Source: a virus (Duplodnaviria; Heunggongvirae; Uroviricota; Caudoviricetes). Taken from it: 64,000 nucleotides of DNA. The position numbers and the translations under genes were made by a program. Positions within the stretch are counted from its first letter, which is position 1; the number at the start of each line of letters is the position of its first letter. This document shows positions 225 to 46,709 of the stretch, piece by piece. A model generated the notes under the pieces. The model was not told the DNA's origin and ran no database searches. It was given only the letters and a program-made list of their open reading frames with translations. The DNA lies in the IMG/VR virus record IMGVR_UViG_2877948078_000003; one strand, 5' to 3'.

Positions 225-677
225 TTATTTTAAGCACTGCGTCCTGATGTACTCCTGCAGGTAGTTGACCTGCGCGGTTATCTTGTCGATTCCACTTCTG
301 AGACGGTAATAATTGAGTTCAGCATCTGCTGTAAGTCCTGGGCTTTCTCCATCGCCCATGCTGCTGGCTCCGGTCGTTGACTTTGCACAGGTGGCGGCGA
401 CTTGCAGGCGCTTACGCCCAGCAGAAACATCAGCACGGAGACTTTCGATAGTCGCGTTAGCATCAGCAAGCTCCTTTGTGTATCTGGCGTCAAGTTCTGC
501 TACATCACGTTGACGCTTCTGCATGTCAGCGATGATGTACCTGGCTTTATCGCGCTGTTCTTTATAGGTAATGGCGTTATCACGGTAATGATTAACAGCC
601 CATGACAGGCAGACGATGATGCAAATAACCAGAGCGGAGATAATCGCGGCTACTCTTCTCACTGATCTATCCCCCAA
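225..677 (-). CDS. Rz: i-spanin Rz (inner-membrane spanin subunit)
   Basis: 150 aa with N-terminal TM segment then coiled-coil-like region; overlaps the endolysin stop; last gene of the lysis cassette; lambda Rz-like. Confidence 0.8.
278..463 (-). CDS. Rz1: o-spanin Rz1 lipoprotein, embedded in Rz in another frame
   Basis: Embedded ORF with lipobox-like LLGVSAC followed by proline-rich CKSPPPV...PAAWAMEK, resembling lambda Rz1; start codon uncertain (Met at 463 or 430). Confidence 0.55.
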
Positions 678-1192
678 CAGGCTAATGCGCTTTCCTGGTC
701 ACGACGAATAACCTGTCCGTAGCAGTTATTTGAACGTGTGCGGCAATCACGCCCACCGTCCTTAATCCACCAGCGAATCGACTCACAGGCACCTTTACGA
801 TCACCGGCATTAAGCCGCTTATAAAACGTCGACGGGAAACACTTACCCGGGCCAATGTTGTAAGGACAGAATGACGCAATACCCGCTTTCTGGGGTTCAG
901 TCAGTGGCACTTTGATGTTTTTCGCCACCCATGCCAGCGCCTTATCACGCTCAATGGCGTTAACCCGGTCGCATTTCCCCTTCGACAGCTTCATGCCAGG
1001 AATAACAGGCTTGCCATCCACCATGATGGCACCTCGGCAGATGGTCCAGATACCCGCACCATCACGGTATGCCGTGGTGTGGTTGCCTTCCTTTTCATCC
1101 AGAAACTGGTCGAGGATTTCAGGCGCAGAAGCACCTGCGGCAATCAGCGCCAGAACGGCAGCCGATAAACCATAGCGGAGTTTCCTGCTCAT
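659..1192 (-). CDS. R: SAR endolysin, phage lysozyme (GH24, R21/P1 Lyz type)
   Basis: 177 aa; N-terminal signal-anchor-release-like hydrophobic segment; catalytic E-x8-D-x5-T pattern in [24 protein letters not shown]; sits between holin and Rz. Confidence 0.85.
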
Positions 1193-1196
1193 CAGC

Positions 1197-1412
1197 TTAC
1201 TCTCCCCGTGCCGCCTTACGCCGGTCCTCTCTGATTTTGAAATACAGGTTCGTCAGGTACGTCAGCAGACCAAACAGCAGACTCCCCAGCACGCCTATTG
1301 CCGCCCACTGAGACGGGGAAACCCTGTCCAGCAACTGCAGGAACCAGTAGCCCGTTCCCACCGCTGACGTGGTGTATGACACACCTGTTGTGATTTTTTC
1401 CATCTGGTACAT
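1197..1412 (-). CDS. S: Pinholin / antiholin with dual start (phage 21 S21-like)
   Basis: 71 aa starting MYQMEK (Met1 and Met4 dual-start motif); two TM helices; C-terminus [20 protein letters not shown] as I recall for S21; RBS GGAG upstream. Confidence 0.85.
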
Positions 1413-1781
1413 ACCCCGTCTCCCGCAATCCGGAAGCTCACAACATGAAAAAGGCCGCCAGTGCTCCACTGACAGCCTCGTGTAGTTACTCTGAGTGCCC
1501 AACAATTCCCTGTCAAACGTGTTGACATTAAGAATCGCTTTTGTGTAGAAAAATTATGGCATGCATAACAATAAAACCTCACAGCCGTACTATTTCCACC
1601 AGAAGCATGACGCATTTCTCCCTGTGCTTACTGGTGGATTTTTTTTGCCCCGCAAATACCGCTGACACATATTGACAATAAGAATATTTTTCATTTAAAA
1701 ATATTCATGTACAAAAATGTTTCTCTGGAGTGTCCATAGAGCTCACCCGCCAGTCCATTCCGGTAACTGGCGGCTTTTTTA

Positions 1782-2244
1782 TCATGCCGCAGTGTCTGTG
1801 CTGTTCACTTCCACCGCAATGCTGTCAATCAGCAGCGTATACGTCGCCGATTTTGATATATCGGTCAGTTGCAGTTTGTCCACCGCCCCCGATGCCGGTG
1901 ACTTCACCAGTGTGAACGCCGCTCCCCGTTTCTCATCCAGTACTGGTGTCACCTGAATGCTGTTGTTTCCGGCAAACTCAAAAGCCAGCGTGTGCCATCC
2001 GTTATCAAAGACCCCGAATGTATCCAGCTTCGCATTCGGCTTCCTGTGATGCATCGCGTTCAGGTTCGTCGTATCCGTCTGCAGGAAGAAAGACATCAGC
2101 ATATCGTTACCTTCTCCTGACAGCGTCACCCCCTCCGGCAGGGACGACAACTGCCAGTAAATGCCCAGGGCAAACTGATTCGGCACCAGTGAACCCGGCA
2201 ACTTAAACCGTACGCTCACACGTCCGCCCTTCTTCAGTAACTCC
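1782..2244 (-). pseudogene. nanS-p: 3' (C-terminal) fragment of a nanS-p-type sialate O-acetylesterase gene, cut off by the Mu-like insertion
   Basis: Translation ELLKKGGRVSVRFKLPGSL...IDSIAVEV aligns to the C-terminal ~155 aa of the intact 680-aa paralogue at 36834-38876; homology stops exactly at the Mu-like left end. Confidence 0.8.
2240..2244. repeat. Left copy of the 5-bp target-site duplication ACTCC
   Basis: ACTCC directly outside the prophage left terminus; identical pentamer at 41125-41129; removing the element and one copy restores the nanS-p frame (GAELLKKGG). Confidence 0.6.
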
Positions 2245-2420
2245 TGTAACCAGGTGAATCATTTGATACCAACGAGGGTTTTAGTGAAAGGAGGTGAAAT
2301 CACCTGTAAGATACTGAAATAAAACAGGTGATGTCTGGATGAGCGCTTAAAGTCTATTTGATACCGATTGTGCAATAATTAATCGTTTATTCTAAAATCG
2401 GCAAAACTTTTGATACTGCG
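2245..2420 (+). repeat. Mu-like left end (attL) with repeated candidate transposase-binding motifs
   Basis: Begins 5'-TG; TTTGATACC at 2262-2270 and 2357-2365, TTTGATACT at 2408-2416; the reverse complement GGTATCAAA / AGTATCAAA recurs three times at the right end. Confidence 0.55.
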
Positions 2421-2494
2421 ATCTCAACTTTTTAAAGCGTTTAAAACTTCATTAAATCTATATGGCAACTAACATACGGGCCAGCCTCGCCAAA

Positions 2495-3025
2495 CTAACC
2501 CGCTTTAGATTCTACCGGATTTGATTGCCTACTTGTCTCGGTTTTTTCCAAAATCTCTCTGACGCAATCGTCTGGCATATCTACAATCATCAACGCAGCC
2601 AGGCGCTTCCTGCCTTCTAGTTGTAATAAATCCTGGTTTTCTTTATCCAGCAGTGTCAGAACCGTCTCTACACCTTTGCGAGCAAGGAGATTGGTTAACT
2701 GTTCTCGTTCGTCTTTCGTAAGGAATGAAAGCATCTGTGTAAGTTGATCTCCCTTATCACCAGAACGACCAAAATTACCACAAATACCAACATCGTTTGG
2801 TGATTCACCCTTGCCCTCTTTAAGCCACTCAAGACTAACTCCTTCACTTTCAGAAATTCGTATAAGGATACTTTCTCTGGGGGCTGGTTGTGTTTGTCCT
2901 CCCTTGAAATAGCTGTTTAATGTGTTGATATTGATTCCCCACGCTCTGGCAGCTGCACTTCTTGAAGGGTAGCGCTTTGTAAGCATTCCAATACGTTCAA
3001 TAACAGGTTCTTTTCCCTGCGACAT
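2495..3025 (-). CDS. c: Mu-type repressor (c / Repc-like)
   Basis: Leftward gene between attL and ner; N-terminal HTH-like region MSQGKEPVIERIGMLTKRYPSRSAAARAWGININTLNSYF; likely start at the internal Met (ORF extends to 3100). Confidence 0.7.
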   Translation of the reverse strand: MSQGKEPVIERIGMLTKRYPSRSAAARAWGININTLNSYFKGGQTQPAPRESILIRISESEGVSLEWLKEGKGESPNDVGICGNFGRSGDKGDQLTQMLSFLTKDEREQLTNLLARKGVETVLTLLDKENQDLLQLEGRKRLAALMIVDMPDDCVREILEKTETSRQSNPVESKAG

Positions 3026-3215
3026 AAAGATACCTCTTGGTGCTTTTCTAAGGAAAGGTTTCTTTCTATTTATCCAATTGAAAAATAAGGATAAAAGCAA
3101 AAAATAGCCAAAACACCAAAAATACCTTGATTTGGTATTTTTAGTGATGCATTATTTACCCGTGCAGATATCCGCACGAATATCCGCGCGGGTAACTTTT
3201 TAGAATAGAGGAAGT
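3026..3215. promoter_or_regulatory. Divergent repressor/early promoter and operator region (Mu O1-O3, Pe, Pc equivalent)
   Basis: AT-rich intergenic region between divergent repressor and ner genes; assigned by position only. Confidence 0.4.
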
Positions 3216-3464
3216 ATGAGTAGAAGAGAAGTTTCAGATCACGATTGGCCGCCTGAAATCATCAAGGCGCGCTTACACATGGCTGGCTTATCACTGCGCT
3301 CTTTATCTTTAAAGGCTGGTTACAGCAGGGATTCGCTGAAAAGCGTATTACGTACTCCTTGCCGACCGTATCAGCAAATAATTGCTGATGCTCTTGGGGT
3401 ATCGCCTGAAGAAATCTGGCCCAGTAGATACCAGGTTAAGAGCTATATGAGAAAGGCGTCATGA
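3216..3464 (+). CDS. ner: Ner-like DNA-binding protein (negative regulator of early transcription)
   Basis: 82 aa; motif GLSLRSLSLKAGYSRDSLKSVL...IIADALGVSPEEIWPSRY resembles Mu Ner; directly upstream of the transposase. Confidence 0.8.
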   Translation: MSRREVSDHDWPPEIIKARLHMAGLSLRSLSLKAGYSRDSLKSVLRTPCRPYQQIIADALGVSPEEIWPSRYQVKSYMRKAS

Positions 3465-3465
3465 T

Positions 3466-5556
3466 ATGTATGTCATTGCAAAAGAACTGATTGGCGCGCC
3501 CGGAATGCCTGCTACAACAAAAGGTATTCGCCAGGCATTACAACGTTACGTACAAGGGAAAAGCTGTTGTTCCCGTCGTCGCTCAGGCTCTAAAGCAACT
3601 GAATACAGCATCGACTGTTTACCTGAAGTGACGCAGCAGGCATTACGTGAACGTTATGCCCTGCAACTGATGACGCAAAAAGCCGATGAATCACCGGCTC
3701 CGGTGGTGACAAAGGCCAGACGCTCATCTGACGTGGTTGATGCGGTGGAGGCATATCGCGGATCACCACAACTGATGGTCGAACGCCTCAATGCCCTGAC
3801 TGAAAACCAGCGCCAGGTGGCTGATGCACGAATCGCGATCGTCAGCGAAGTGATGAAAGTCGCGCAACAACCCGGTTTCAGCTGCGCGAAGGCTATCCGG
3901 TTTATCGTTGACAACCTGGCACGTTCACAGCTGGACGAGCGCATTGTGGCAATGGTTGAGACGGCGAACGCCAAAAAGGGAAACAGCCGTGCGTTGAGTG
4001 AAATCACGCTGAAGCGATGGATTGCGGCCTTTAACAAGGCACAGAACGCCGCTGAACGCCTGCTTTTACTGGCACCGGGTAAACGCCAGGAAATAAAAGC
4101 CGAAGATATTAACTGGCTGCCCGAATTTCTGGCGCAGTATCGCCAGTCAAACGGCCGACCAATGACCGAGGCTTACGAGGATTTTGTTGCTGAATGGCAG
4201 CACCGGCACGCTGATGAGCCTTATATGCTCGATATCATGCCCTCTTATGACACCATTCGCCGCGCAATGAAGAAACTGCCGGAAGTGGTGAAACAAAAAG
4301 GCCGGGTGACAGGCAGTGAATACCGTCAGCTTGAGGGATTCACGCGCCGCGACTGGTCCAGAATGCCGGTGAATTATGTCTGGATTGGTGACGGTCACGG
4401 CATGAAGATGAAATGCAGGCACCCGGTTCACGGGCGGCCATTTGCACCGGAAGTGACCTTTGTTATCGACGGTGGCACGCGCTTTGTGGTGGGCTGGAGC
4501 CTTGACCTGGCTGAAAATGTTTTCGCCGTAGCCGGTGCCATACAGCACGGTATTCGCCATCACGGCAAACCGTTTCTGTATTACTCGGATAACGGTTCGG
4601 GGGAAACCGCCGACATCCTGGATAAGGAGGTTGTGGGGATCCTGCCGCGCCTGGGGATTAATCACCCGACAGGGATTGCCGGTAATCCGCAGGGGCGAGG
4701 CATTATCGAACGGCTTAACCGCACATTACCGATGCGCATAGCCCGTAAATACCGCACCTATTTCGGGAAAGGTGCAGATCGCGAGACGTTACGCAAAACC
4801 AACCGCGATTTACGCTCGGCATTCACTGCCCTGCAACAGGACAAACGGCTGAACGCCCGGCAGCAGTCAGCGATGCGTGATTTACCGTCCTGGCCTGAAC
4901 TGATTGATGCCATCCGTGATGGTGTCGAGTGGTACAACAACCGGCCGCACAGCGGATTGCCGGTGAAACCGAACGGTAAGCATTACAGCCCGGCGGAATA
5001 CAGGAAAAAACGCCTGGCAGAAGAGGACACGGAAATTGAATGGCTGTCCGATGTTGAGCTGCGGGATATGTTCCGGCCGATGGTGGAACGCCCGGTAAGA
5101 CGCTGTGAAATACGCTGGCTGAATAATATTTACTACGCGCCCGAGCTGCGTGATGAGCATGGCCGTAAGGTGCTTATCAGCTATGACATTCATGATGCCG
5201 AACGAATTACCGTGCGTCGCCTGGATGGCAGCGTGATTTGCGAGGCGGTATGGGACGGCAATAAACGCGAAGCCTTCCCGGTCAGCGCGGAATACTACAA
5301 ACAGCAGCAACGCCTTAAAGGCATGCGTAAACGCGCAGAGGAAAAAATCCGTGATGCCGAGGATGAGGTGGTCAACGTGCTGGAGCACAAGCCGCAAGAG
5401 CCCTGGCTGGAAAACATCTATCGCCCGGTAGGTAATACGGTGGCCGTTCAGCAACCTGCCGTTGATGATGAGCCTGATGAAGAATACGAGCGTAATTTCC
5501 AGCGGGGATTGCAGTTGCTCGAAGCGAAATTAAAAGAAAATGACCCGCTGGCCTGA
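3466..5556 (+). CDS. A: Mu-type DDE transposase A
   Basis: 696 aa (MuA is ~663 aa); internal DDE-like region (VWIGDGHG ... YYSDNGSGE ... IERLNRTL); position after ner. Confidence 0.9.
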   Translation: MYVIAKELIGAPGMPATTKGIRQALQRYVQGKSCCSRRRSGSKATEYSIDCLPEVTQQALRERYALQLMTQKADESPAPVVTKARRSSDVVDAVEAYRGSPQLMVERLNALTENQRQVADARIAIVSEVMKVAQQPGFSCAKAIRFIVDNLARSQLDERIVAMVETANAKKGNSRALSEITLKRWIAAFNKAQNAAERLLLLAPGKRQEIKAEDINWLPEFLAQYRQSNGRPMTEAYEDFVAEWQHRHADEPYMLDIMPSYDTIRRAMKKLPEVVKQKGRVTGSEYRQLEGFTRRDWSRMPVNYVWIGDGHGMKMKCRHPVHGRPFAPEVTFVIDGGTRFVVGWSLDLAENVFAVAGAIQHGIRHHGKPFLYYSDNGSGETADILDKEVVGILPRLGINHPTGIAGNPQGRGIIERLNRTLPMRIARKYRTYFGKGADRETLRKTNRDLRSAFTALQQDKRLNARQQSAMRDLPSWPELIDAIRDGVEWYNNRPHSGLPVKPNGKHYSPAEYRKKRLAEEDTEIEWLSDVELRDMFRPMVERPVRRCEIRWLNNIYYAPELRDEHGRKVLISYDIHDAERITVRRLDGSVICEAVWDGNKREAFPVSAEYYKQQQRLKGMRKRAEEKIRDAEDEVVNVLEHKPQEPWLENIYRPVGNTVAVQQPAVDDEPDEEYERNFQRGLQLLEAKLKENDPLA

Positions 5557-5627
5557 AATAAAAAAATAACCCGAGCGGCGACTCAGGTTATTTGATTAAA
5601 CAAGGTATCAAATGAGAGGTTAATAAT

Positions 5628-6560
5628 ATGACTGATATTAACGATGTAATCAAGACCATTGATGAACTTATTGATGGCGGCGTACTGACGCAGTATGCCA
5701 TCGCCAGAGAGGCGGGAATTTCCGACGGCACATTATCGGCTTTCCGTAAGGGAAAATATAAAGGCGATAACGCTGCTGTGGCTGCTTCCCTGCGCTCCTG
5801 GTATGAGAACTGGAATAAACAAAGCGCACTGCCGGAACCGCCGCAGTTTGTGGAAACGCAGACAGTCCAGGAGCTGCGCGCACTGTTTCAGGCGGTTCGT
5901 CTGATGGGCTGTATTAACGTTATTGTGGGCGTACCGGGTGTGGGTAAAACGGCCACCGCCCGTAATTACTGCCAGGAGCAACCAAACACCTGGATGATCA
6001 CCCTGTCTCCCGCGCATTCCAGCGTCACGGAGTGTCTGCTGGAGCTGGCCGATGCGCTGGGGATTGATTACACCCGCGCGAACAAAGGGGCATTATCCCG
6101 CGCCATCCGCCGTCGCCTGATGGGAACGCGCGGACTGGTGATTGTGGATGAGGCGGATCATCTTGGTATTGACGGTCTGGAGCAACTCCGGGCAATTCAG
6201 GACGCCACGGGGATCGGGATGGTGCTTATTGGTAACCCGCGCGGACTGTTTAAAGGTGGACGCCGCGCCTTTGATGATTTATCGCGCCTGTTCAGCCGTC
6301 TTGCCCGTACAAAACAACTTCGCAGGGCTAAAAAGGCGGATGTGCTGGCTATTGCCAGGGCATGGGGTATCAGTGGTGAGGCCGAGCTGGCTGTCATGCA
6401 GGCTATTGCTGAAAAACCGGGAGCATTACGTGTTCTGACACATACGCTTAACCAGGCGTGGCTCACAGCCAGCGGTGAAGGCGCGGCGCTGACAGAAAAA
6501 CATATTAATGCGGCCTTTAAAGAGGTTTACACCAACCCTGAATTACTCTCGCAGGTGTGA
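5628..6560 (+). CDS. B: Mu B-type ATPase (transposition target-DNA activator)
   Basis: 310 aa; N-terminal HTH; Walker A GVPGVGKT and Walker B VIVDEADHL; follows A. Confidence 0.85.
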   Translation: MTDINDVIKTIDELIDGGVLTQYAIAREAGISDGTLSAFRKGKYKGDNAAVAASLRSWYENWNKQSALPEPPQFVETQTVQELRALFQAVRLMGCINVIVGVPGVGKTATARNYCQEQPNTWMITLSPAHSSVTECLLELADALGIDYTRANKGALSRAIRRRLMGTRGLVIVDEADHLGIDGLEQLRAIQDATGIGMVLIGNPRGLFKGGRRAFDDLSRLFSRLARTKQLRRAKKADVLAIARAWGISGEAELAVMQAIAEKPGALRVLTHTLNQAWLTASGEGAALTEKHINAAFKEVYTNPELLSQV

Positions 6561-6784
6561 TTATGGCTGTATTTAATATTCCTGATATTTACGGACGCTT
6601 TTACCTGGTGAATTTCGATAACGTCAAAGCAGTCTCCATGTCTGACAGTGAAGAATGTGGCGATTTACTCTTTGAATTTAATGATCGCACCCGAATGGCA
6701 ATATCGGCAGGACTTGATCGTGAAGGTGCGAAAGAAGCTTACAGCAATATTTGTCGCTTTATCGGTGCAAGACGGGTTAGTTAA
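6557..6784 (+). CDS. Small early protein in the Mu kil position
   Basis: 75-aa ORF with GTG start overlapping the B stop (GTGA); named by position only. Confidence 0.45.
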   Translation: MIMAVFNIPDIYGRFYLVNFDNVKAVSMSDSEECGDLLFEFNDRTRMAISAGLDREGAKEAYSNICRFIGARRVS

Positions 6785-6796
6785 ACGAGAGGTTAT

Positions 6797-7216
6797 ATGA
6801 AAATGCAGATACAGCAGGAAATCAATGTTCTCCACAGCTTTCGAGAGTTTAACGTCGATGACGGGGAGGTTTGTGATTATATCTATGAATTGATGGACGG
6901 TGATGGTGTGTGTTTTCTGTATATAGACCTGTATCAGTGGTATGCAGACATGCAACTTGATTCCATCAGACGCCGTTTTAATCATGAATGCTTTGATGTG
7001 GATGTATGGGAAAGCCTGTGCTTTGGTTTTCTGATTATGGATGATTATCGCCAGGGGTGGCGACACGGTTACTCCATTCTTCGTGCAATCATGCGTGGCG
7101 AAACCCGAAAAATGCCGGGGATGGGTAAAGTTAATCGAGGCTTCCTGTCAGAGCTGGCTGCATTGCGCATGAATCCATTACTGATACAACCGGAGTTCAC
7201 TTATGAATTTGTTTGA
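6797..7216 (+). CDS. Hypothetical early protein (acidic, 139 aa)
   Basis: ORF with RBS GAGAGG upstream; early semi-essential region. Confidence 0.5.
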   Translation: MKMQIQQEINVLHSFREFNVDDGEVCDYIYELMDGDGVCFLYIDLYQWYADMQLDSIRRRFNHECFDVDVWESLCFGFLIMDDYRQGWRHGYSILRAIMRGETRKMPGMGKVNRGFLSELAALRMNPLLIQPEFTYEFV

Positions 7217-7433
7217 TTCACTGAATAACGCCCGTCGCCTGACCGAGCTTGCCGGTGCGGTACTGGAACGCAGTAAGCGCTATCCGCAACGCTTTGCACT
7301 GAAAACCACGCCGCCGGTAGGTGAGGTTCAGGGGAGTGGTGAGGAAATTGAAATCACCGTTAAGACCAACGGCCTGCGCCGCCGTGTGAAAGCCACCCGC
7401 ATAAGCGGATGCACGGTTTACTGGGAAGTATGA
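7203..7433 (+). CDS. Hypothetical early protein (76 aa)
   Basis: ORF overlapping the preceding stop; operon context. Confidence 0.4.
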   Translation: MNLFDSLNNARRLTELAGAVLERSKRYPQRFALKTTPPVGEVQGSGEEIEITVKTNGLRRRVKATRISGCTVYWEV

Positions 7434-7507
7434 AGTTGCTTCATGGTTCGGCTCTGTCATCAGGTCAGATGCCGGGTCAGTTATCCGAACAAAACGAGAG
7501 CCAGAGG

Positions 7508-7780
7508 ATGAGTAAAGTCGTACGCATTATTTTCGAATACAAGGAAGATGTTATCTGCAAAAACTCTGATGGCAGCACGCACAGAGGGGTAAGTCTGGAT
7601 ATACGTTCAACCGGAATAAAGAAGAAAGATAATGGACCCGCCATGATTTTTGGGGTGGTTATGCTGGCAGAAAGCAGAAACTTCGCAGAGCTTGTGGCAA
7701 TGAAAGCCAGTGCATTCATGAAAGACAGGGGTATGGCTTCCGGGGTTATTAACGGTAATGAATTTAATCAGCAGGGGTAA
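7508..7780 (+). CDS. Hypothetical early protein, tandem paralogue 1
   Basis: Starts MSKVVRIIFEYKED; the next gene starts MSKVRVIFEFEH, indicating a tandem duplication. Confidence 0.45.
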   Translation: MSKVVRIIFEYKEDVICKNSDGSTHRGVSLDIRSTGIKKKDNGPAMIFGVVMLAESRNFAELVAMKASAFMKDRGMASGVINGNEFNQQG

Positions 7781-7784
7781 TTCC

Positions 7785-8078
7785 ATGAGCAAAGTACGCG
7801 TTATTTTTGAATTTGAGCATGTTTCGCATGACGAAAAGCTGGCAGGCAATGACTGTGTTGAAGTGCATGAAAAGATTGGAGTGAATGTGAAAACAGAACG
7901 TGATACGGAGAACAGCCCGACGTCACTCTGTGATGTTTATGCAAGTATTCTCCAGTATCACAGTCCTGCAATTATTCAGCTTCTCTCAGCGGAATTTCAG
8001 GCATCTGTACAGGCTTTTGGGGCGGATGCCATCATTAAACGCCACCGTGTGCATAAAGCATCAGGCACGCTGCAATAA
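7785..8078 (+). CDS. Hypothetical early protein, tandem paralogue 2
   Basis: Starts MSKVRVIFEFEH; same operon and strand as paralogue 1. Confidence 0.45.
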   Translation: MSKVRVIFEFEHVSHDEKLAGNDCVEVHEKIGVNVKTERDTENSPTSLCDVYASILQYHSPAIIQLLSAEFQASVQAFGADAIIKRHRVHKASGTLQ

Positions 8079-8088
8079 GGAAAACAAA

Positions 8089-8619
8089 ATGGTTAAACGT
8101 GTTACAAAATTAAAGGCCGCAGCCGAGGCCGCACCACAGACCCGCGAAGAAGTCAGCCGCGATATCCGCACTCTGGGCGATATTCAGCGAGAGGCGCTGC
8201 GCCTGGAAACGGCAATGAATGATGAAGTGGCAGAAATCACCGCCCGTTATACGCCGCAGATTGAAAACCTTAAAAAAGAAATCAAAGTGCTTTTTAAAGG
8301 GATTCATGACTGGTGTAAAACCAACCGCAATGAGCTGACGAACGGCGGCGAAACCAAAACTGCCAATCTGACCACCGGAACGGTGTCATGGCGGCTGGGA
8401 AATCCATCATGCAGCGTCAGTCGTGATGTGGAAGGTGTGATTGAAATGCTGCGTCGTATGGGGCTTGAGCGCTTCATCCGCACGAAAGAGGAAGTGAATA
8501 AGCAAGCTGTCCTGGCGGAGCCGGATGCGGTGAAAGGGATTGCTGGTATTAAGGTGAATAAAGGCGCTGAAAGTTTTCATGTCGAGCCTTTTGAACAGGA
8601 CGCCGGACTGAATAAATAA
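8089..8619 (+). CDS. gam: Gam-like protein (Ku-like host-nuclease inhibitor / DNA-end binding)
   Basis: 176 aa; LGDIQREALRLETAMNDEVAEIT ... ELTNGGETKTANLTTGTVSWR ... RFIRTKEEVNK closely resembles Mu Gam as recalled. Confidence 0.8.
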   Translation: MVKRVTKLKAAAEAAPQTREEVSRDIRTLGDIQREALRLETAMNDEVAEITARYTPQIENLKKEIKVLFKGIHDWCKTNRNELTNGGETKTANLTTGTVSWRLGNPSCSVSRDVEGVIEMLRRMGLERFIRTKEEVNKQAVLAEPDAVKGIAGIKVNKGAESFHVEPFEQDAGLNK

Positions 8620-8703
8620 CACCGCATTAAATCTTTAAATATCACATCGTTTTAATTATGGCGCTTGCGTCAGGGGACTGCTCGCGCCTGAATGAGGCAT
8701 ATC

Positions 8704-9282
8704 ATGAGTATAAAATATCGTTATTTTAAAATGAATGAGCGCGATTCCCGTCATTATCACAGGGAATGGCTTGATTGCGCTGGCAGGGAGCGCAAGAAAT
8801 TGATTGATGATTTTCTCAGTAATCATAGAGCTAAAGGATACCTTTACTTCTGGTGTTATGGGCATATTTTTGTCACATCAATACTGGTTCATGAGGATGT
8901 TGATGTCGGAAGAAATAAGCGGGTGCTGTCTGATAAATTTGATGAAGATGGCCGCGTTTTATTTTCAGTTAAGCCCGACCGCAGATTCCGAGAGGGAAAA
9001 AAACTGAACAAAGCACTGAATATCTTAAACGAGAAGTTAAAACAGCTTCCGTCATTCAGTACCTGGATGGTTAATAAACTGGACTGCTATTTTGAGGTTT
9101 TTGGTGTCAGCAACGGCCGCACAGTTATGGCGTGCTCTTCTGCCGGGTTCTATGGCGACAAAGGGGCTGTTGTGGTTCGTATTCCTGTCGGTGAATCAGA
9201 TAATGCCTTTTCCCCTGAAAAGCTGCATCCGTCATTGATGGCAATCAAGCATTCCGAATTCATCGCAATAACGGAGGAATAA
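8704..9282 (+). CDS. Hypothetical protein, AT-rich cargo gene in the early region
   Basis: 193-aa ORF with RBS GAGG; local AT content clearly higher than flanking Mu-like genes; no recognisable motif. Confidence 0.5.
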   Translation: MSIKYRYFKMNERDSRHYHREWLDCAGRERKKLIDDFLSNHRAKGYLYFWCYGHIFVTSILVHEDVDVGRNKRVLSDKFDEDGRVLFSVKPDRRFREGKKLNKALNILNEKLKQLPSFSTWMVNKLDCYFEVFGVSNGRTVMACSSAGFYGDKGAVVVRIPVGESDNAFSPEKLHPSLMAIKHSEFIAITEE

Positions 9283-9285
9283 TTC

Positions 9286-9819
9286 ATGATTGATGCAAAA
9301 GTGCTTGAAGGGGTTAAAAACTGGCTGAGTATTTACGGGCGTCTGACTTGCGGTGTTCTGGCTGAAAAAATGAATATGCCGCCATCCTCGATGGTTTATT
9401 TTCTGCGTGATGCGGTTGATGCAGGCGTGCTGACGGAACGTAACGGTTTTTATGATATTCCGCGTCCCCGCCCGGTGCAGCCGGTTCGTCGCAAATGCAG
9501 CCAGGAATGTGCGGCTGATGATGTTCAGTGGTGCAGCTTCAGAAAGTCCCTGCCGTGGATTGAGGGGCATGATATTCCGTCGATGGCGTGGGAATTTGCT
9601 CAGGGCGTTCTGACCTGTGAAACCGTTTATGTGGTGGCTGAAGTTGATGAGCAGGCCATGAAAGAAGGCGTGCCCCAGTTTGTGATGGCGTATATCGACA
9701 TTCGCCTGGGTGTCATCATCTGCGGTTTAAGCGGCTGGAATATCACCGCGCGTGTTCTGCGCTACCTGATTGTTGACCGGACAGCAGCGCCTGCCGGGAT
9801 ATCTGCGGAGGTGGCGTAA
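9286..9819 (+). CDS. Hypothetical early protein (177 aa)
   Basis: ORF immediately downstream of the previous stop; operon context. Confidence 0.5.
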   Translation: MIDAKVLEGVKNWLSIYGRLTCGVLAEKMNMPPSSMVYFLRDAVDAGVLTERNGFYDIPRPRPVQPVRRKCSQECAADDVQWCSFRKSLPWIEGHDIPSMAWEFAQGVLTCETVYVVAEVDEQAMKEGVPQFVMAYIDIRLGVIICGLSGWNITARVLRYLIVDRTAAPAGISAEVA

Positions 9820-10334
9820 TGTTCTTTAAAACATCAAACCCTTCCGCGCTGGCTGCGTGGCAAAAATACCAGCAGGACTGCCAGAAAGTTAAGGATGAGG
9901 CAAAGCGCCTTGAGGCTGTGCTGAATGTTGCGTGCCGGTCGGTATTTGAATTCAGTATCAGTGGCTTTTGTTTTAAGGGGCTGCGTTTTACGGATGACAA
10001 ATATCCTTTTCATCGTGATTTATGGCGAAAACCAACTGCGTCGAATGGCTGGAGCTGCACACCGCGCACATCACGTATTCCCAAAGCCCTGCGCGTTGCC
10101 TCTGACGAACTTAACAGTCTGTGGCGTGAATATTCGCCCGTCACGTATGCCAGAACCGATGCCCTGTTGTTCTGGCTGGGCATTGATTTCTCGGCAATCC
10201 TGTTTGGCCCTGTGGAGTGGTTCTGCGTTGACGATGTGATTTACCTTCAGTGCGGCGTAAAACCCGCAAAACAGAAAATGACCGAAATTCTGTCTGATGA
10301 GTTTTATGCTGCTGAAAAGCGAGTCAGGGGGTGA
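9819..10334 (+). CDS. Hypothetical early protein (171 aa)
   Basis: ORF start overlaps the preceding stop; operon context. Confidence 0.5.
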   Translation: MFFKTSNPSALAAWQKYQQDCQKVKDEAKRLEAVLNVACRSVFEFSISGFCFKGLRFTDDKYPFHRDLWRKPTASNGWSCTPRTSRIPKALRVASDELNSLWREYSPVTYARTDALLFWLGIDFSAILFGPVEWFCVDDVIYLQCGVKPAKQKMTEILSDEFYAAEKRVRG

Positions 10335-10337
10335 TGC

Positions 10338-10889
10338 ATGATGATATTACAACCCATGGGGCGAAAAGGCCGTGCACCCGCTCATGTTCGCGCATGGACA
10401 CCTGAAGAAGATGCGCTGCTGATTGCGCTTTATCCATCCACCCCGGTTAAGGATATTGCTGTCAGGATAAAAAGAAGTTTCTGGGGTGTACATAACCGGA
10501 TTGTTTTATTACGCGGTACTTACCCGGAGTTGCTCAAATGCAAACGTCCAAGATTTAAACATGATGAAGATAAATTTATCCGAAAAAATGCCAGAACGAT
10601 GACCGGTAAGCAAATAGGAGAATATCTGGGGCGAGACCGGGATTCTGTCCACAATCGGGCGCGATATATTGGCGTAAGCATGAAAAAATACGGAGAATTG
10701 CTGCCCTTCACCCGTATACCTGACGATGATGTTCATCTTATTCGTGAATTACGGGATGCTGAATCACCACGACGTCTTACCTTCCGGGAAATAGGCGAGA
10801 AATTTGAATTATCCGAGAGTACGGTGAATTTTATTTATCACCATCGCCGGACTGCCGAGGACGCTGTATTACGGGAGTTAACGCCATGA
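10338..10889 (+). CDS. Hypothetical protein with repeated HTH-like segments (possible DNA-binding)
   Basis: 183 aa; three spaced helix-turn-helix-like stretches (WTPEEDALLIALY, GKQIGEYLGRDRDSVHNRARYIG, LTFREIGEKFELSESTV). Confidence 0.5.
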   Translation: MMILQPMGRKGRAPAHVRAWTPEEDALLIALYPSTPVKDIAVRIKRSFWGVHNRIVLLRGTYPELLKCKRPRFKHDEDKFIRKNARTMTGKQIGEYLGRDRDSVHNRARYIGVSMKKYGELLPFTRIPDDDVHLIRELRDAESPRRLTFREIGEKFELSESTVNFIYHHRRTAEDAVLRELTP

Positions 10890-11071
10890 TAAAGAGACTT
10901 GTATTTTTCGCAATTTTCGTTCCGGTGTTGGGGGTTGGTTTTATATTTGCGATTACAGGAAACCTGTCCATGATGCCAGATATTTGGTTCTTTATCAGGA
11001 TGTCGCTCTTCCTGTTTATTATGAATCTTCTTATCGACATATATATCCGTATTACTGGAAAACATAAATGA
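10886..11071 (+). CDS. Small membrane protein (2 predicted TM helices)
   Basis: 61 aa, strongly hydrophobic; first gene of an AT-rich sub-cluster. Confidence 0.45.
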   Translation: MIKRLVFFAIFVPVLGVGFIFAITGNLSMMPDIWFFIRMSLFLFIMNLLIDIYIRITGKHK

Positions 11072-11442
11072 GAAAAATCACGTCCTTGTCAGAGTTACAG
11101 GAGATGAATATGAGTATTGAATTAAGATCGTCTTATGAGTATCGCAAATTTCTTATCGCCGGAGGCATGAAACCGGAAGATGTGGAAAAAATCGTTTCTT
11201 TTATGGATAAGGAATGTGACAAGCGGGATGTGTCAGAAATTATTATGGATGACATGATTCTGGATTCAGTCGTGGCGTTAAGTCCGTTATGGATTGTGCA
11301 TTCTCTTGCGGAAATTGCCAAAGGCACCGATAAACAGGCAGCTGTTGCTGCCCTTCAGACGCTTAATGAAATGCGTATATCTCCACGCCCGACATTAATA
11401 CAGATGATTTTGTCCAGTATGGAGGATAAAGCAAATGAATAG
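11068..11442 (+). CDS. Hypothetical protein (124 aa)
   Basis: ORF overlapping neighbours by 4 bp; AT-rich sub-cluster. Confidence 0.45.
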   Translation: MRKITSLSELQEMNMSIELRSSYEYRKFLIAGGMKPEDVEKIVSFMDKECDKRDVSEIIMDDMILDSVVALSPLWIVHSLAEIAKGTDKQAAVAALQTLNEMRISPRPTLIQMILSSMEDKANE

Positions 11443-11632
11443 TCTACCCGCTGGATGGGCGCGCCCTCTGATGGCTAAGAAGTATCATTTTTTTAAAACT
11501 GGCGATAATATCAGTATATGTAGGCGGTGGTTATATCTGGCTCATAATCGCGAGCCGGATACATTTGAAAGCCCTGATGACTGTGCCGAATGTCGCAGAA
11601 GACTGAATAAGGAGAAAGATAATGGACAGTAG
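11435..11632 (+). CDS. Hypothetical small protein (65 aa)
   Basis: ORF overlapping neighbours; AT-rich sub-cluster. Confidence 0.4.
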   Translation: MNSLPAGWARPLMAKKYHFFKTGDNISICRRWLYLAHNREPDTFESPDDCAECRRRLNKEKDNGQ

Positions 11633-11918
11633 TTCGCAGTTGTTCTGGTGTTTATATATCACATCGTTTTTCGGTGCATTCGTCATTACACGATGGCTGT
11701 GCCGGAAAGTTATCAGTATTTTTCATAAAAAATACCTGATTGGGCTGGCGGCGACTTCTCTGATTAATGCACTTGCCAGATATCATAAGGGGGAATACTA
11801 CTCAAGAATAAAAACTGATGATGGTTTTAATATTTTTGTGATTCCTCCGGAGTATCGGGTTCAGCTCGATCGGGAAAGTAATATCTATCATATCAGCAGG
11901 AGTGTTGATACAGCATGA
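11622..11918 (+). CDS. Hypothetical membrane protein (98 aa)
   Basis: N-terminal hydrophobic helices; AT-rich sub-cluster; ends overlapping the gemA start. Confidence 0.45.
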   Translation: MDSSSQLFWCLYITSFFGAFVITRWLCRKVISIFHKKYLIGLAATSLINALARYHKGEYYSRIKTDDGFNIFVIPPEYRVQLDRESNIYHISRSVDTA

Positions 11919-12424
11919 GAGGGAAACTGATATCCGCTATTCATGTGGCAAAGCGCGAGCTTGCCCTGGATGATGAGACCTACACATTCGTACTACTGGC
12001 AGCCACCGGCAAAACCAGTTGCCGGGATATGTCACCCGGTGAGTTATCCCGCGTGCTGGATGTTTTCAAAAAACGCGGTTTTAAAGTGCGTCAGAAACCG
12101 GTTAACCGGGCCTTAAAACCGGGTACGGTGACCGCCAAAATTCGCGCCATCTGGAAAGTGATGCACCGGCAGGGCTTTATCTCTGATGGTGCGGAAACCG
12201 CTCTTAACCGCTGGGTGAAATCGCAGACGGCCGCGCAGAACGGCGGCGAAGGTGTGGCAAACTGGCAGTGGCTGGAGCAACACCCCGCCCTGGCCTCAGA
12301 TGTGCTGGAGCGTCTCAAGCGATGGCACCGCCGCAAAATGCTGGCCGCGATGGGAATGCCCGAACGCACGCTGATGGGGTATGACGCCGTTTGCAGGCAG
12401 TATGAAAAATCACTTCCCCGTTAA
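11915..12424 (+). CDS. gemA: GemA-like regulatory protein (Mu gp16 family)
   Basis: 169 aa; position directly upstream of mor; sequence character consistent with the Mu GemA family. Confidence 0.65.
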   Translation: MRGKLISAIHVAKRELALDDETYTFVLLAATGKTSCRDMSPGELSRVLDVFKKRGFKVRQKPVNRALKPGTVTAKIRAIWKVMHRQGFISDGAETALNRWVKSQTAAQNGGEGVANWQWLEQHPALASDVLERLKRWHRRKMLAAMGMPERTLMGYDAVCRQYEKSLPR

Positions 12425-12493
12425 CCCCAAATCCCGCCACAACGCGGGATTTTTATTTTAAACTTACCGGGAACGCGAGAACCGGAGGCTGAT

Positions 12494-12919
12494 ATGGCAG
12501 AAACTCAGATGAGCATGTTTGGTGGTGACAGTGAGCAACTGCACGCCCTTATCGACCGCCTTGATGACATCCCTGATGATGTTCTCAAAAAGAACTGGCC
12601 GCGGACCCTGTCAGAACTGGTTGAAGTCACCGGCGCAGAACTTCAGCGTCAGGGGATTGAGCCGGTACTGGCCGGTAAACTGGCACGCAAGGTGGCTGCG
12701 GCTCAGGCAGCCTATATGGGCGGACGGGGTTATTACCTGCCGGTCGGGGAATCTCTCTTTGCCGAGCTGCGAAACAATGAGATATTTTCGCGCTGGGACC
12801 GGGGCGAGAAGATTGAATCCCTTCGCCGCCATTACCGGATGTCAGAAACCCAGATTTATACCGTCATACGTGAACAGCGCCGTCTGCATCTGGCAAGAAC
12901 GCAACCGCCACTTTTCTGA
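12494..12919 (+). CDS. mor: Mor/C-family transcriptional activator (middle/late operon regulator)
   Basis: 141 aa; C-terminal HTH (RRHYRMSETQIYTVIREQRR); position between gemA and the lysis genes. Confidence 0.75.
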   Translation: MAETQMSMFGGDSEQLHALIDRLDDIPDDVLKKNWPRTLSELVEVTGAELQRQGIEPVLAGKLARKVAAAQAAYMGGRGYYLPVGESLFAELRNNEIFSRWDRGEKIESLRRHYRMSETQIYTVIREQRRLHLARTQPPLF

Positions 12920-12990
12920 TATTCCGCAAAGCCTGCCGCCTCTCCTTCACCGTTACGCTGACTCAGAGAACATCATGAGACAGCGTAACA

Positions 12991-13491
12991 ATGCCAAAAC
13001 TCCCCGCACCACTGCGTAAAAAGCTGATTGCCCTTGTTCTGGCCGGTGCCGGGACGTTCACGATTGCCACGCATTACACCGGTTACTGGGAAGGGAAAGA
13101 AAACTCCACGTATATCGATCCCACCGGTACACCCACCATCTGTTACGGCCATACCGGCCCGGATGTGAAACCGGGTATGACCCTGACAGATGAAGAATGC
13201 CTGGAACTACTGGAAAAGGACATGAAATGGGCCTTTGCGGCCATTGATCGGCGTGTTCAGGTGCCGCTTACCCGTGGTCAGACGGTGGCGCTGGCTTCGT
13301 GGATCTTCTGGGCCGGTGAAACGAACTTTCGCAACTCCACGCTTCTGCGCCTGATCAATGCCGGGCAGATGCCCGCGTCCTGTAAGCAGTATATCCGCTG
13401 GATTTATTCAAAGGGGGTGAAACTTCCCGGCCTTGAGGCCCGCCGTTCGGCGGATGAATGGTTATGTCGCTACGACTTGCCGAAAGTCTGA
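12991..13491 (+). CDS. lys: Mu-type endolysin (lysozyme with N-terminal signal-anchor)
   Basis: 166 aa; hydrophobic N-terminus; catalytic pattern WEGKENSTYIDPTGTPTICYGHTG (E...D...T). Confidence 0.8.
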   Translation: MPKLPAPLRKKLIALVLAGAGTFTIATHYTGYWEGKENSTYIDPTGTPTICYGHTGPDVKPGMTLTDEECLELLEKDMKWAFAAIDRRVQVPLTRGQTVALASWIFWAGETNFRNSTLLRLINAGQMPASCKQYIRWIYSKGVKLPGLEARRSADEWLCRYDLPKV

Positions 13492-40105: not shown

Positions 40106-40306
40106 ATGTATCGAAACATACGGTGCCGACACTGCAATAAGCTACTGGCACGGGCCAGTTTCAGTTATCTGGAAGTAAAATGTCCGCGCTGTAAAACCCT
40201 CAATCAAATCACATCTCCGAGCGCCACAGAGCACCCCACATACACAAGGAAATCCTGTCGTGGGGAACAGAAAGCAAGTCACATCCCGAATCATCAGCAC
40301 GCCTGA
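40106..40306 (+). CDS. com: Com-like zinc-finger translational activator of mom
   Basis: [31 protein letters not shown] (CxxC ... CxxC) resembles Mu Com; RBS AGGAGG upstream; overlaps the mom start. Confidence 0.7.
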
Positions 40307-40997
40307 ACTTATTCGCTATAACGACAATATCGTTGGTTATGGCTCCCGTGAGTTGCGGGTTGAGACAATAAGTTGCTGGCTGGCCAGACTGGTCATCGTC
40401 AATAAACATTACAGCCACCGTTTCGTAAATAACTCCTACCTTCATCTGGGCATATTTTCAGAACGGGAACTTGTTGGCGTAATGCAATGGGGTTACGCCC
40501 TTAACCCAAACAGTGGTGCACACGTCGTAACGGGTACGCAGAACCGAGAATATATGGAGCTTAACCGGCTATGGCTGCATGACTGTATGCCGAGAAACTC
40601 CGAATCAAGGGCAATCAGTTACGCGCTCAAGCTAATCAGACAGCTTTATCCGCAGGTACAGTGGGTTCAGTCGTTTGCAGATGAGCGTTGTGGCTGTCTT
40701 GGTGTCGTGTATCAGGCAAGCAATTTTGATTATGTAGGCAGCCATGAATCAACATTCTATGAACTTGATGGCGAGTGGTATCACGAGATTTGCAGGAATG
40801 CCATTAAACGAGGCGGACAACGAGGTGAACATCTGAGGGCTAATATCGACAGAGCCAGTGTTCATAAGTTCCGACAGTTTCGTTACATCCGGTTTCTGAA
40901 CAAGAGGGCCAGAAAACGCCTCAACACAAAGCTATTCAAAGTCCAGCCTTACCCAAAACCACAAACTGTTAAAACCGGTTTGAAAGAGATTGGGTGA
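40260..40997 (+). CDS. mom: Mom-like DNA modification protein (anti-restriction adenine modification)
   Basis: 245 aa starting at GTG inside the com 3' end as in Mu; last gene before the right end. Confidence 0.7.
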
Positions 40998-41039: not shown

Positions 41040-41124
41040 TTTAGTATCAAATAAGTTGCGTATCGGCGTTTTTCAGCGGTATCAAATGAAATGCAAATCG
41101 GTATCAAAAAAATCGCCGCGCTAT
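41040..41124 (+). repeat. Mu-like right end (attR) with inverted candidate transposase-binding motifs
   Basis: AGTATCAAA at 41043-41051, GGTATCAAA at 41078-41086 and 41100-41108: reverse complements of the left-end motifs; terminus reads ...CGCGCTAT rather than the canonical CA. Confidence 0.55.
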
Positions 41125-41129
41125 ACTCC
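41125..41129. repeat. Right copy of the 5-bp target-site duplication ACTCC
   Basis: Identical to 2240-2244. Confidence 0.6.
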
Positions 41130-42858: not shown

Positions 42859-42859
42859 A

Positions 42860-43890: not shown

Positions 43891-44127
43891 AACTGATATC
43901 CAGCTAACAATCATCTACAATGGACGAAGCCAGTTCCAGAACTTGCCCACGGTACAGCAACAACCACTGCATACACATAATTACCACCGGACTCTCTGAA
44001 CCTGCCTACTGGCTAACCCCAGATACAACACCACCAGTCACAAAAGCATCTTATTCTGAAGTACAACTGCCGTGCGGCAGATACTAAAAGCGCCTGTATG
44101 TAACAACATAAATATACAGGATATGTT

Positions 44128-44406
44128 TTATCCACGGGATATAATTTTGATTTCATCAAAACCGTTACTACCTGCAATTCTGTTGTACTCCTGAACAAGA
44201 CTCAGTAACTCCGAATTAGCCGCGGTGAACTCCTCACAGACGTTCCGAAGTGCATCTACATCCAGAAGAACCATCTCCTGACCTGAACGTCGATCAGGGG
44301 TACAAAATAAAACTGTCAGACGACTGAAGACCTTTGTTCGTTCCACATTGACGGCTTCAATACGCTGTAACAGTTGGCTACATCTGATTTTCTCATCAAT
44401 ATTCAC
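44128..44406 (-). CDS. Hypothetical protein (92 aa) downstream of the AraC-family regulator
   Basis: ORF on the cargo strand, AT-rich. Confidence 0.45.
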   Translation of the reverse strand: MNIDEKIRCSQLLQRIEAVNVERTKVFSRLTVLFCTPDRRSGQEMVLLDVDALRNVCEEFTAANSELLSLVQEYNRIAGSNGFDEIKIISRG

Positions 44407-44495
44407 GCAAACACCAAATGATTATAACTTTTTATGCTGAACACATTCAGACTATATCTAATACAGTCAATCAATATATGCCTGATGAAAAAACA

Positions 44496-45221: not shown

Positions 45222-45304
45222 TTTGAATTAACCTGAGCAAAAAGACTTAATACCAGTATATTCCAAAAATGGCATTTTGGGAGATTACTTCTGCAAACCG
45301 CTCC

Positions 45305-45448: not shown

Positions 45449-45454
45449 GCAGAA

Positions 45455-45590: not shown

Positions 45591-45596
45591 TTTTTT

Positions 45597-46700: not shown

Positions 46701-46709
46701 TATGTGATA

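Follow-up and report, generated by a model that had tools for sequence, protein, structure and literature searches.

The semi-essential (SE) region of bacteriophage Mu, which extends from kil to gemA (Mu_5 to Mu_16; AF083977), comprises 14 open reading frames (ORFs), only few of which have an assigned function, and is part of one long early transcript together with A and B (PMC3325207). The region is dispensable for plaque formation, yet it affects burst size and host viability, and its deletion restores the viability of the host after infection (PMC3325207). In Mu-like phages of Pseudomonas aeruginosa a conserved core is accompanied by short variable ORFs without assigned function at fixed loci, which have been interpreted as horizontally acquired adaptive genes (PMC4378225). 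Here we analyse the block between B and gemA, positions 6557-11918, in a stretch of 64,000 nucleotides (nt) of viral DNA (IMG/VR record IMGVR_UViG_2877948078_000003), which as a whole is called the window in the following. This block very probably represents the SE section of the early operon in a Mu-like transposable prophage from Escherichia coli.

The block between B and gemA

Because the block lies between B and gemA, as in the annotated Mu record, we regard it as the counterpart of the Mu SE region. It is located on the same strand as B, gemA and mor, contains kil and gam, and has gp11 and gp12 in common with Mu, so that the first-pass annotation, in which it was described as a Mu-like semi-essential early region, stands in this point. 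That annotation had placed at least 13 ORFs between B and gemA. The ORF listing agrees with it in the coordinates and comprises 14 ORFs, all on the + strand and packed tightly or overlapping, which are numbered o1 to o14 here:

5628..6560, + strand: B, transposition protein and upstream limit of the block; Pfam Phage-MuB_C 9.4e-25 and AAA_22; 48% identity to Mu B by tblastn
6563..6784 (GTG alternative at 6557), + strand: o1, acidic protein of 73 amino acids (aa); phrog_3375 3e-41, unknown function
6797..7216, + strand: o2, acidic protein of 139 aa; distant homologue of Mu gp8 (E7)
7203..7433, + strand: o3, Kil homologue (host killing / septation block); phrog_2679 'Kil protein' 3e-39
7442..7507, + strand: 3' remnant of a phrog_1518 gene in the spacer between kil and o4; carries the ribosome-binding site of o4
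7508..7780, + strand: o4, basic protein of 90 aa; phrog_4107 6.5e-55
7785..8078, + strand: o5, protein of 97 aa; phrog_2230 1e-37
8089..8619, + strand: o6, Gam, DNA-end-binding host-nuclease inhibitor; Pfam Phage_Mu_Gam (PF07352) 2e-39
8704..9282, + strand: o7, DUF5420 protein of 192 aa in the gam-gp11 slot; rare AT-rich allele
9286..9819, + strand: o8, homologue of Mu gp11; Pfam Gp11_C 4.6e-40
9819..10334, + strand: o9, homologue of Mu gp12 (E13); phrog_2314 9e-85
10338..10889, + strand: o10, basic, putatively DNA-binding protein of 183 aa; phrog_323 'transcriptional regulator' 6e-59; isoelectric point (pI) 10.0
10886..11071, + strand: o11, predicted two-pass membrane protein of 61 aa; GC content 0.355
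11110..11442 (mechanical ORF start at 11068), + strand: o12, acidic protein of 110 aa; phrog_1988 5e-44, aligned from residue 15
11435..11632, + strand: o13, basic protein of 65 aa; phrog_2358 2e-32, matching only the N-terminal half of the 146-position profile
11622..11918, + strand: o14, protein of 98 aa with an N-terminal hydrophobic anchor; phrog_17269 9e-66
11915..12424, + strand: GemA, downstream limit of the block; Pfam GemA 9.5e-30; 43% identical to Mu GemA; start overlaps the stop codon of o14
12429..12452, + strand: strong terminator-like hairpin directly 3' of gemA; 9-bp stem with 5 GC pairs and a T-rich tail

The block and the Mu SE region have the same position and orientation between B and gemA/mor, both contain 14 small and tightly packed ORFs, and in both a hairpin follows the operon. 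Seven homologues are found here, namely Kil, gp8/E7, Gam, gp11, gp12, gp9/E8 and GemA. At the DNA level the similarity to Mu is limited to gam, gp11 and the start of gp12 (about 69% identity over 21% of the query). The gene order differs as well: the Mu region begins with kil and has E8 on the upstream side of gam, while the present block begins with o1 and o2, ahead of kil, and has the E8-like o10, which carries an extra N-terminal module, after gp12. Seven ORFs (o1, o4, o7 and o11-o14) have no Mu counterpart by BLASTP, with o5 being doubtful, and conversely Mu gp6 (E5), gp13 (E14), gp14 (E15) and Mu_54 have no counterpart in the block. Unlike in Mu, gemA is not preceded by a separate gap or promoter region.

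For two ORFs the start had to be chosen. The start of o1 is most likely the ATG at 6563 rather than the GTG at 6557; RefSeq also uses the ATG (222 bp), and the PHROG alignment begins at the same residue. Similarly, o12 most likely starts with the ATG at 11110 rather than at 11068, which corresponds to the RefSeq start and agrees with the PHROG alignment. Overlaps of 1-14 bases are present at seven junctions (o2/o3, o8/o9, o10/o11, o11/o12, o12/o13, o13/o14 and o14/gemA), with 14 nt at o2/o3; the o11/o12 overlap depends on the start at 11068, just as an overlap of o1 with the stop codon of B depends on the GTG at 6557. Shine-Dalgarno sequences are visible at most starts of the block. RefSeq calls the same 14 ORFs in the closest E. 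coli relative and 12 of the 14 in E. coli STEC1585, where o7 is absent and other genes replace o11.

Coding capacity was examined in 35 related loci, of which IMG/VR supplied 27 and annotated genomes together with phage Mu the other 8. Apart from two alleles of o4, none of the unique alleles contains an in-frame stop. In 13 of the 14 ORFs the annotated frame has the lowest ratio of non-synonymous to synonymous differences (pN/pS), with values of 0.10-0.48 in comparison to 0.6-4 in the shifted frames. In frame we obtained 0.22 for o1, 0.48 for o2, 0.15 for o3, 0.30 for o4, 0.15 for o8, 0.19 for o9, 0.36 for o11 (from few sites), 0.18 for o12 and 0.16 for o13. The intact frames and the low in-frame ratios indicate that the ORFs are genes, and the lack of a coding signal, which the first-pass annotation had named as a possible objection, is not what these loci display. 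A PHROG family was found for every ORF with E-values from 1e-5 down to 1e-104, except for o2, which has Mu gp8 and other homologues instead.

Mu homologues and lineage-specific genes

It had been supposed in the first-pass annotation that only Gam is recognisable among these ORFs. This does not hold, as Kil, DUF5420, Gp11_C and several further Mu homologues could be identified. Sequence comparison gives Mu counterparts for about half of the ORFs, which are clear for Kil, Gam, gp11 and gp12 and distant for gp8/E7 (o2) and gp9/E8 (within o10). Gam and o8 show 54% identity to Mu Gam and 67% identity to Mu gp11, respectively, both across the full length, and o9 shows 55% identity to Mu gp12 over 169 aa. 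The N-terminal segment of o8 looks like a winged helix-turn-helix (HTH), judged by eye only and with no profile behind it. The BLASTP match between o3 and Mu Kil is weak (E=8e-5), and RefSeq names a homologue 'Kil protein family'. For o2 and Mu gp8, both 139 aa long, BLASTP gives 32% identity over 76 aa (E=1e-4) and the two share the motif F[ND]VD[LV]WE; the o2 family is tiny, with 9 representative clusters in a full HMMER scan of 1.84 billion proteins. A distant relationship of o5 to Mu gp7 (E6) is doubtful, with gp7 matching phrog_2230, the family of o5, at E=0.009. Functions are established for two of the 14 genes, kil and gam; that all ORFs would turn out to be Mu proteins of established function, a possibility considered in the first-pass annotation, is true for these two only.

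The similarity of o10 to Mu gp9 (E8) is more distinct (BLASTP E=7e-9). Against shuffled sequences, the alignment of modules 2 and 3 of o10 to the two gp9 modules reaches z=12.4 and 5.8, respectively, while module 1 resembles module 2 marginally (z=2.1). All Pfam matches of o10 stay below the gathering scores: a Myb match in module 1 reaches 13.8 bits, and 23.6 bits against a required 24.4 in an allele with 73% identity, module 3 shows an AsnC-type HTH (19-21 bits) and a sigma-70 region 4 HTH, and module 2 has no match. The three HTH-like repeats proposed earlier for this protein are therefore plausible as three HTH-like modules. Modules 2 and 3 are homologous to gp9; the HTH profiles remain sub-threshold and the likeness of module 1 marginal.

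In Mu the gam-gp11 slot contains no gene but only a gap of 100 bp. Here it is occupied by o7, which scores 51.3 bits against Pfam DUF5420 (PF17457; cut-off 26), residues 83-189 corresponding to profile positions 80-181 of 184. With the E. coli allele that is common in this slot the protein shares only 23% identity. Because this common slot protein belongs to the same PHROG, phrog_2260 (1e-74), o7 is a divergent allele and not unrelated cargo. Its nearest relatives outside E. coli come from Salmonella (45-52% identity) and Citrobacter (47%). According to the RefSeq annotation, SfMu also has a DUF5420 gene between gam and the gp11 homologue, and in Citrobacter braakii the equivalent slot holds an o7 homologue with 47% identity. 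In some Mu-like phages of Yersinia the distance from gam to gp11 exceeds that of Mu by about 500 bp, the extra gene not being named in the annotation. The DUF5420 family is without described function or fold, and an AlphaFold2 model of o7 gave no significant fold match. The allele found here is more AT-rich than the backbone; the first-pass annotation had recorded it as an AT-rich gene of 193 aa, which is correct for the composition, the length being 192 aa.

The two adjacent genes o4 and o5 had been described as paralogues. Their N-termini are indeed nearly identical over 10-12 residues (MSKVVRIIFEY and MSKV-RVIFEF), and BLASTP aligns them with 24% identity over 54 aa (E=0.005). With family alignments hhalign gives 85-87% probability, but for the first 33-42 columns only (columns 1-34 or 1-45 of 90), and the two proteins belong to separate PHROG families (phrog_4107 and phrog_2230). 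Hence the shared N-terminal part of about 35-45 residues is retained from the earlier description, while similarity over the rest of the proteins is not found, and full-length or recent duplication was rejected. We read o4 and o5 as possible ancient paralogues or as genes with a recombined common 5' module. In an AlphaFold2 model of o4 (mean predicted local distance difference test score 70.7) strands at 6-18 and 24-35 form a beta-hairpin (6-35), which is followed by a long helix (44-73), and the segment common to o4 and o5 corresponds to this predicted hairpin. The model has no Foldseek match at E<=0.001 in BFVD or the PDB.

Both families are almost confined to E. coli, and o5 has a second allele group with 57-59% identity. 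The relatives L006 (2609-2950) and L012 (2031-2480) lack o4 and carry o5 directly behind the leader that precedes o4 elsewhere (compared with window positions 7434-8078). This arrangement is consistent with a loss of o4 by recombination between the near-identical 5' ends of the two genes. Some database homologues of o5 (P0051, P0060 and P0062) are frameshift fusions into an alternative frame, which in the window, at 7900-8619 (+ strand), shows up as a long mechanical ORF that extends into gam. Such fusions probably represent pseudogenes or errors of sequencing, and naive alignments of the family are contaminated by them.

Between kil and o4 there are 75 bp (7434-7507), which represent what is left of the 3' end of a phrog_1518 gene, 282 bp in its full length and annotated as 'host nuclease inhibitor'. 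This gene is intact in L004 and L005 (about 4e-41 to 4e-43). Around 210 bp of it are missing in the window and in its closest relatives, and the window aligns to L005 and L004 on both sides of the gap.

At the distal end of the block, o11 has two strongly hydrophobic segments and basic termini (Kyte-Doolittle maximum of 2.79 over 19 residues), and in the relatives L001 and L008 its slot holds two unrelated genes (phrog_6925 and phrog_6158). In o13 the cysteines C29, C50 and C53 are conserved in all alleles. The hydrophobic N-terminal segment of o14, LFWCLYITSFFGAFVITRWL, is followed by CRK; its hydropathy is borderline in this allele (1.43) and higher in the other allele group (1.8-2.1). Regarding the AT-rich four-gene sub-cluster with two small membrane proteins that had been noted before, the AT-richness and the membrane protein o11 are clear, whereas o14 has a single anchor which is borderline by hydropathy. 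The alleles of o14, among them those of L018-L026 and L032, fall into groups of about 93-100% and about 50% identity. Residues 7-27 are identical between the groups, in contrast to the much stronger divergence of the roughly 68 C-terminal residues, and therefore the allelic breakpoint lies inside the gene. Judged from the alleles, this would be the mark of a recombination breakpoint or of diversifying selection within o14.

Nine ORFs (o1, o2, o4, o5, o7 and o11-o14) have GC contents of 0.355-0.449, in comparison to 0.53-0.56 in B, kil, gp11 and gemA and 0.52-0.61 in the late region, so that the AT-richness pointed out earlier was correctly seen. Among the E. coli and IMG/VR relatives in the 35-locus matrix the backbone genes B, kil, gam, gp11 and gp12 are 90-100% identical, two kil values being lower or missing, and gemA also belongs to this backbone. 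By contrast, o2, o4 and o11 are slots of presence or absence, as are o12-o13 in a few loci, and the phrog_1518 gene deleted here is another such slot; o2 is absent from about half of the related loci. Deep allelic splits occur in o7 (about 23% identity), o14 (about 50%), o5 (57-59%), o10 (72-74%) and o1 (65-78%), the latter with allele groups at about 98%, 90% and 76%. The alignments show the block to be a mosaic of replaceable slots in a stable backbone.

By megablast, matching DNA was found in 232 of 5,426 complete E. coli genomes, with at least 80% of the region covered in 23. The parts of the block differ in this respect:

o1-o5 arrangement including o2: any match in 232 genomes, at least 80% covered in 10
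o7, this allele: any match in 125 genomes, at least 80% covered in 9; most of the others match only the first 71 bases after gam
o11-o14: any match in 221 genomes, at least 80% covered in 108

A genome-contig search with gp12 gave no match with the single protein, and with a two-sequence alignment only one locus, from Citrobacter braakii. This prophage keeps o1 (55%), kil (70%), DUF5420 (47%), gp11, gp12, o12 (40%) and gemA. Therefore o1, o7 (DUF5420) and o12 belong to the backbone of the lineage and are not recent cargo. In the same locus (L036, Citrobacter braakii ATCC 51113, 3584-4886) tblastn finds no match to the Gam of the window or of Mu in the 1.3 kb between kil and DUF5420. The term AT-rich cargo, which had been applied to the region, is thus correct in part: o2 and this o7 allele are rare (9-10 of 232 genomes), o11-o14 are common (108 of 221), and o1, o7 and o12 are backbone genes. 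In the sequence comparisons o1, o4, o5, o7/DUF5420 and o11-o14 show themselves as specific to the enterobacterial Mu-like lineage and, except for the close o14 alleles, as subject to purifying selection.

Possible roles of the early proteins

The genes of the block would be co-transcribed from an early promoter upstream of ner and translationally coupled, with transcription ending at the hairpin behind gemA; 12429-12452 is the probable end of the early transcript. Given co-transcription from the early promoter, the products would be made in the first minutes of lytic growth, as we propose. By analogy with Mu, the early proteins might condition the host for replicative transposition. Kil would block division or kill the cell, Gam would cap DNA ends against exonucleases, and GemA would modulate host gene expression. 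DNA binding is probable for the basic o10 and perhaps for gp11, while host factors are the most likely binding partners of the small membrane proteins o11 and o14 and of the acidic proteins o1, o2 and o12. Across 2200-13200 promoter-like and terminator-like sites are not enriched (10 found against 14.5 expected, and 12 against 12.1). Within 6557-11918 there are a few weak hairpin matches, region-wide counts being no higher than in shuffled sequence, and an Rfam scan found no RNA family there. A single early transcript would be compatible with this layout.

Several points weigh against this interpretation. Co-transcription and timing are read from the layout and from Mu. Because 12 of the 14 proteins have no assigned function, 'host conditioning' is the assignment to a class and not a mechanism. 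Mu gp7 was given up as a secure homologue of o5, since beyond the PHROG match mentioned above hhalign of o5 against Mu gp7 alone was negative. The frame contrast is weak in o2 and o7 (0.44-0.48 in frame, 0.64-0.84 out of frame), and close o14 alleles have a pN/pS of about 1 (6 synonymous and 22 non-synonymous differences), which fits relaxed or diversifying selection, not simple purifying selection.

One could go further and suspect that the prophage is defective, with an early region which does not code or is in decay, and that many of its small ORFs stay open by chance, as several encode only 61-98 aa, functions are unassigned, the phrog_1518 gene is deleted here, some database copies of o5 and o4 are frameshifted, and the close o14 alleles give the ratio just mentioned. 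However, we regard this as highly improbable and essentially refuted by the PHROG membership of all ORFs except o2, which has its own homologues, by the frames intact in all unique alleles except two of o4, by the lowest pN/pS in the annotated frame of 13 of the 14 ORFs, and by the Shine-Dalgarno motifs and coupled junctions; even o14 keeps frame and length in all alleles, also at 50% identity. It is also improbable that o11-o14 represent a moron or lysogenic-conversion cassette, which would be expressed from the repressed prophage and provide superinfection exclusion or another benefit to the host. The GC content of these genes is the lowest of the region (0.355-0.444), two of the products (o11 and o14) are membrane-anchored, relatives have unrelated genes in the o11 slot instead, and the C-terminal domain of o14 is hypervariable. 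But upstream of o11 a promoter-like site is missing, and neither within nor after the cluster is there a credible terminator; the sole terminator-like match inside it, a hairpin of 5 pairs, is weak and belongs to the opposite strand. On the + strand there is one promoter-like match (11216-11243), located within o12, and shuffled sequence contains more such sites. Moreover, every junction overlaps, including o10/o11 and o14/gemA, which points to translational coupling in the early operon, o12 is kept in a Citrobacter Mu-like prophage, and the cluster occurs in about half of the related E. coli prophages. A promoter- and terminator-flanked moron was therefore rejected, AT-rich as the cluster is: + strand flanking signals are missing and the junctions are coupled.

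An inhibition of anti-phage defence, e.g. restriction-modification, clustered regularly interspaced short palindromic repeats (CRISPR) or abortive infection, by some of the lineage-specific early genes (o1, o2, o4, o5, o7, o11-o14), whose divergent alleles would then reflect an arms race, had been suggested in the first-pass annotation and would turn the block into an anti-defence island. It deserves more weight, although we still consider it rather unlikely. It is given this weight because small, early, acidic or membrane-anchored and deeply divergent genes often target host factors. The genes in question are small and early by position, several products are acidic (pI 4.9 for o1, 4.8 for o2 and 4.9 for o12), AT-rich genes adjoin the nuclease inhibitor Gam, and relatives hold the further 'host nuclease inhibitor' gene (phrog_1518) in the block. 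In addition, the alleles are very divergent amid a backbone that is 90-100% identical among most relatives, and genes that aid phage survival have been reported from the accessory slots of Mu-like phages of Pseudomonas (PMC4378225). On the other side, the 12 unassigned proteins match no PHROG or Pfam family annotated as anti-defence, which is absence of evidence only. They also have no NCBIfam match, and the ten scanned with PADLOC, whose models describe defence and not anti-defence, have no match there. Searches of the PDB with the sequences of o2, o7, o8, o9 and o10 and with the DUF5420 profile gave nothing credible, the best hits being unrelated enzymes at E=0.03-0.07. In total, Pfam, PHROGs, NCBIfam (14 proteins) and PADLOC (ten) returned only Kil, Gam, DUF5420, Gp11_C and the sub-threshold HTH matches, and among the known anti-defence families in the scanned libraries only Gam qualifies by sequence or fold homology. 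In the literature on DUF5420, on functions of the Mu SE region and on anti-defence genes in Mu early regions nothing specific was found. An anti-defence role of the ORFs other than gam has thus found no support in the scanned libraries, and we would call it doubtful. Somewhat wider, and a tentative possibility, is that at least one of the lineage-specific early proteins is an undescribed inhibitor of host defence or of an essential host process, its allelic divergence reflecting an arms race with E. coli targets. Tentative candidates are the acidic o1, o2 and o12, the hairpin-helix proteins o4/o5, o7 and the anchored o14. Because DUF5420 is recurrent in the gam-gp11 slot or its equivalent (E. 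coli, Shigella SfMu, Citrobacter) and has close Salmonella homologues, it would be the best single candidate for a conserved new function near Gam.

Prophage setting and related elements

The Mu-like transposable prophage to which the block belongs spans about 2246-41125 of the window. Its ends were placed by 5 bp, ACTCC, flanking both junctions (at about 2241-2246 and 41125-41130) as a direct duplication. Repeats of TTTGATAC are located near 2262-2416 and their reverse complements near 41044-41108; they are likely to be transposase-binding sites. Other genes around the block are:

3216-3464, + strand: ner, by Pfam and comparison with Mu
3466-5556, + strand: transposase A, by Pfam and comparison with Mu
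12494-12919, + strand: Mor, by Pfam; a lysozyme gene lies further downstream

A divergent ORF at 2495-3100 occupies the position of the Mu repressor c, but neither a significant family match nor a BLASTP match to Mu c was obtained for it.

The Mu-like prophage splits a nanS-p-like esterase gene, which belongs to a lambdoid prophage. Of the esterase, the N-terminal part with DUF1737 and SASA is located at 41126-42631 (- strand) and the C-terminal part with DUF6645 at 1782-2219 (- strand), and lambdoid lysis genes are found at 225-1505 (- strand). The Mu-like prophage encodes a protein of 680 aa of its own (36834-38876, + strand), which is composed of a SASA esterase and DUF6645, the same domain pair as in the interrupted lambdoid gene. 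This protein lies near the tail-fibre end of the prophage and is followed by a Mom-family gene at 40260-40997. The small RNA family STnc100 is present in five copies, four in tandem at 42859-43838 and a fifth at 45598-45810, with a gene for an AraC-family regulator between the fourth and the fifth. This stretch lies in the interval from the lambdoid tRNA genes to the esterase gene, which is the place where Shiga toxin (Stx) phages carry stx; an ORF of the size of stxA was not found between these genes. A sok antitoxin RNA lies beyond the STnc100 stretch. The side features occupy 42859-45810, 44496-45221, 46627-46785 and 52399-52573, all on the - strand.

The prophage family is common in Shiga toxin-producing E. 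coli (STEC) and other E. coli. Its class is presumably exemplified by Sp18 of O157 Sakai. Both PMC4406740 and PMC13502914 refer to Sp18 as Mu-like. Examples of the family are a Mu-like prophage of E. coli RM9245, with 94.9% identity over 96% of the region, and one of E. coli STEC1585, with 97.7% over 85%. These prophages, which include one of O157:H7 ECP19-798, have the same ORF calls in RefSeq. The O157:H7 copy lacks o2, possesses the phrog_1518 gene and has a DUF5420 allele 23% identical to o7. Two GenBank records of Stx phages annotated 'region of the inserted Bacteriophage Mu-like phage' cover 78-81%. None of the listed genomes matches the entire region at a single identity level; the copy described here combines rarer pieces (the o1-o5 arrangement with o2, the o7 allele, the missing phrog_1518 gene) with the common o11-o14 set.

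The region is ordinary and widespread in sequenced E. coli and changes nothing that is known on Mu-like phages. For decades it has been known that the Mu SE region harms the host and helps the phage, and yet most of its ORFs are without an assigned function (PMC3325207). What the E. coli lineage adds is natural variation, in the form of presence and absence and of alleles with 23-76% identity, which could guide the choice of genes such as o7/DUF5420, o14 and o2. The recurrent DUF5420 slot beside gam and the anchored, hypervariable o14 are modest leads in this respect. The Mu-like phages of P. aeruginosa represent a different lineage, in which the DNA similarity to the block is only about 150 bp of gam and no homology of accessory genes was seen, and in PHROGs, Pfam, NCBIfam and PADLOC we did not find an anti-CRISPR or another known accessory function here. 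The slot pattern of these phages, with variable genes at fixed positions of a conserved core, is the same as in the block between B and gemA.

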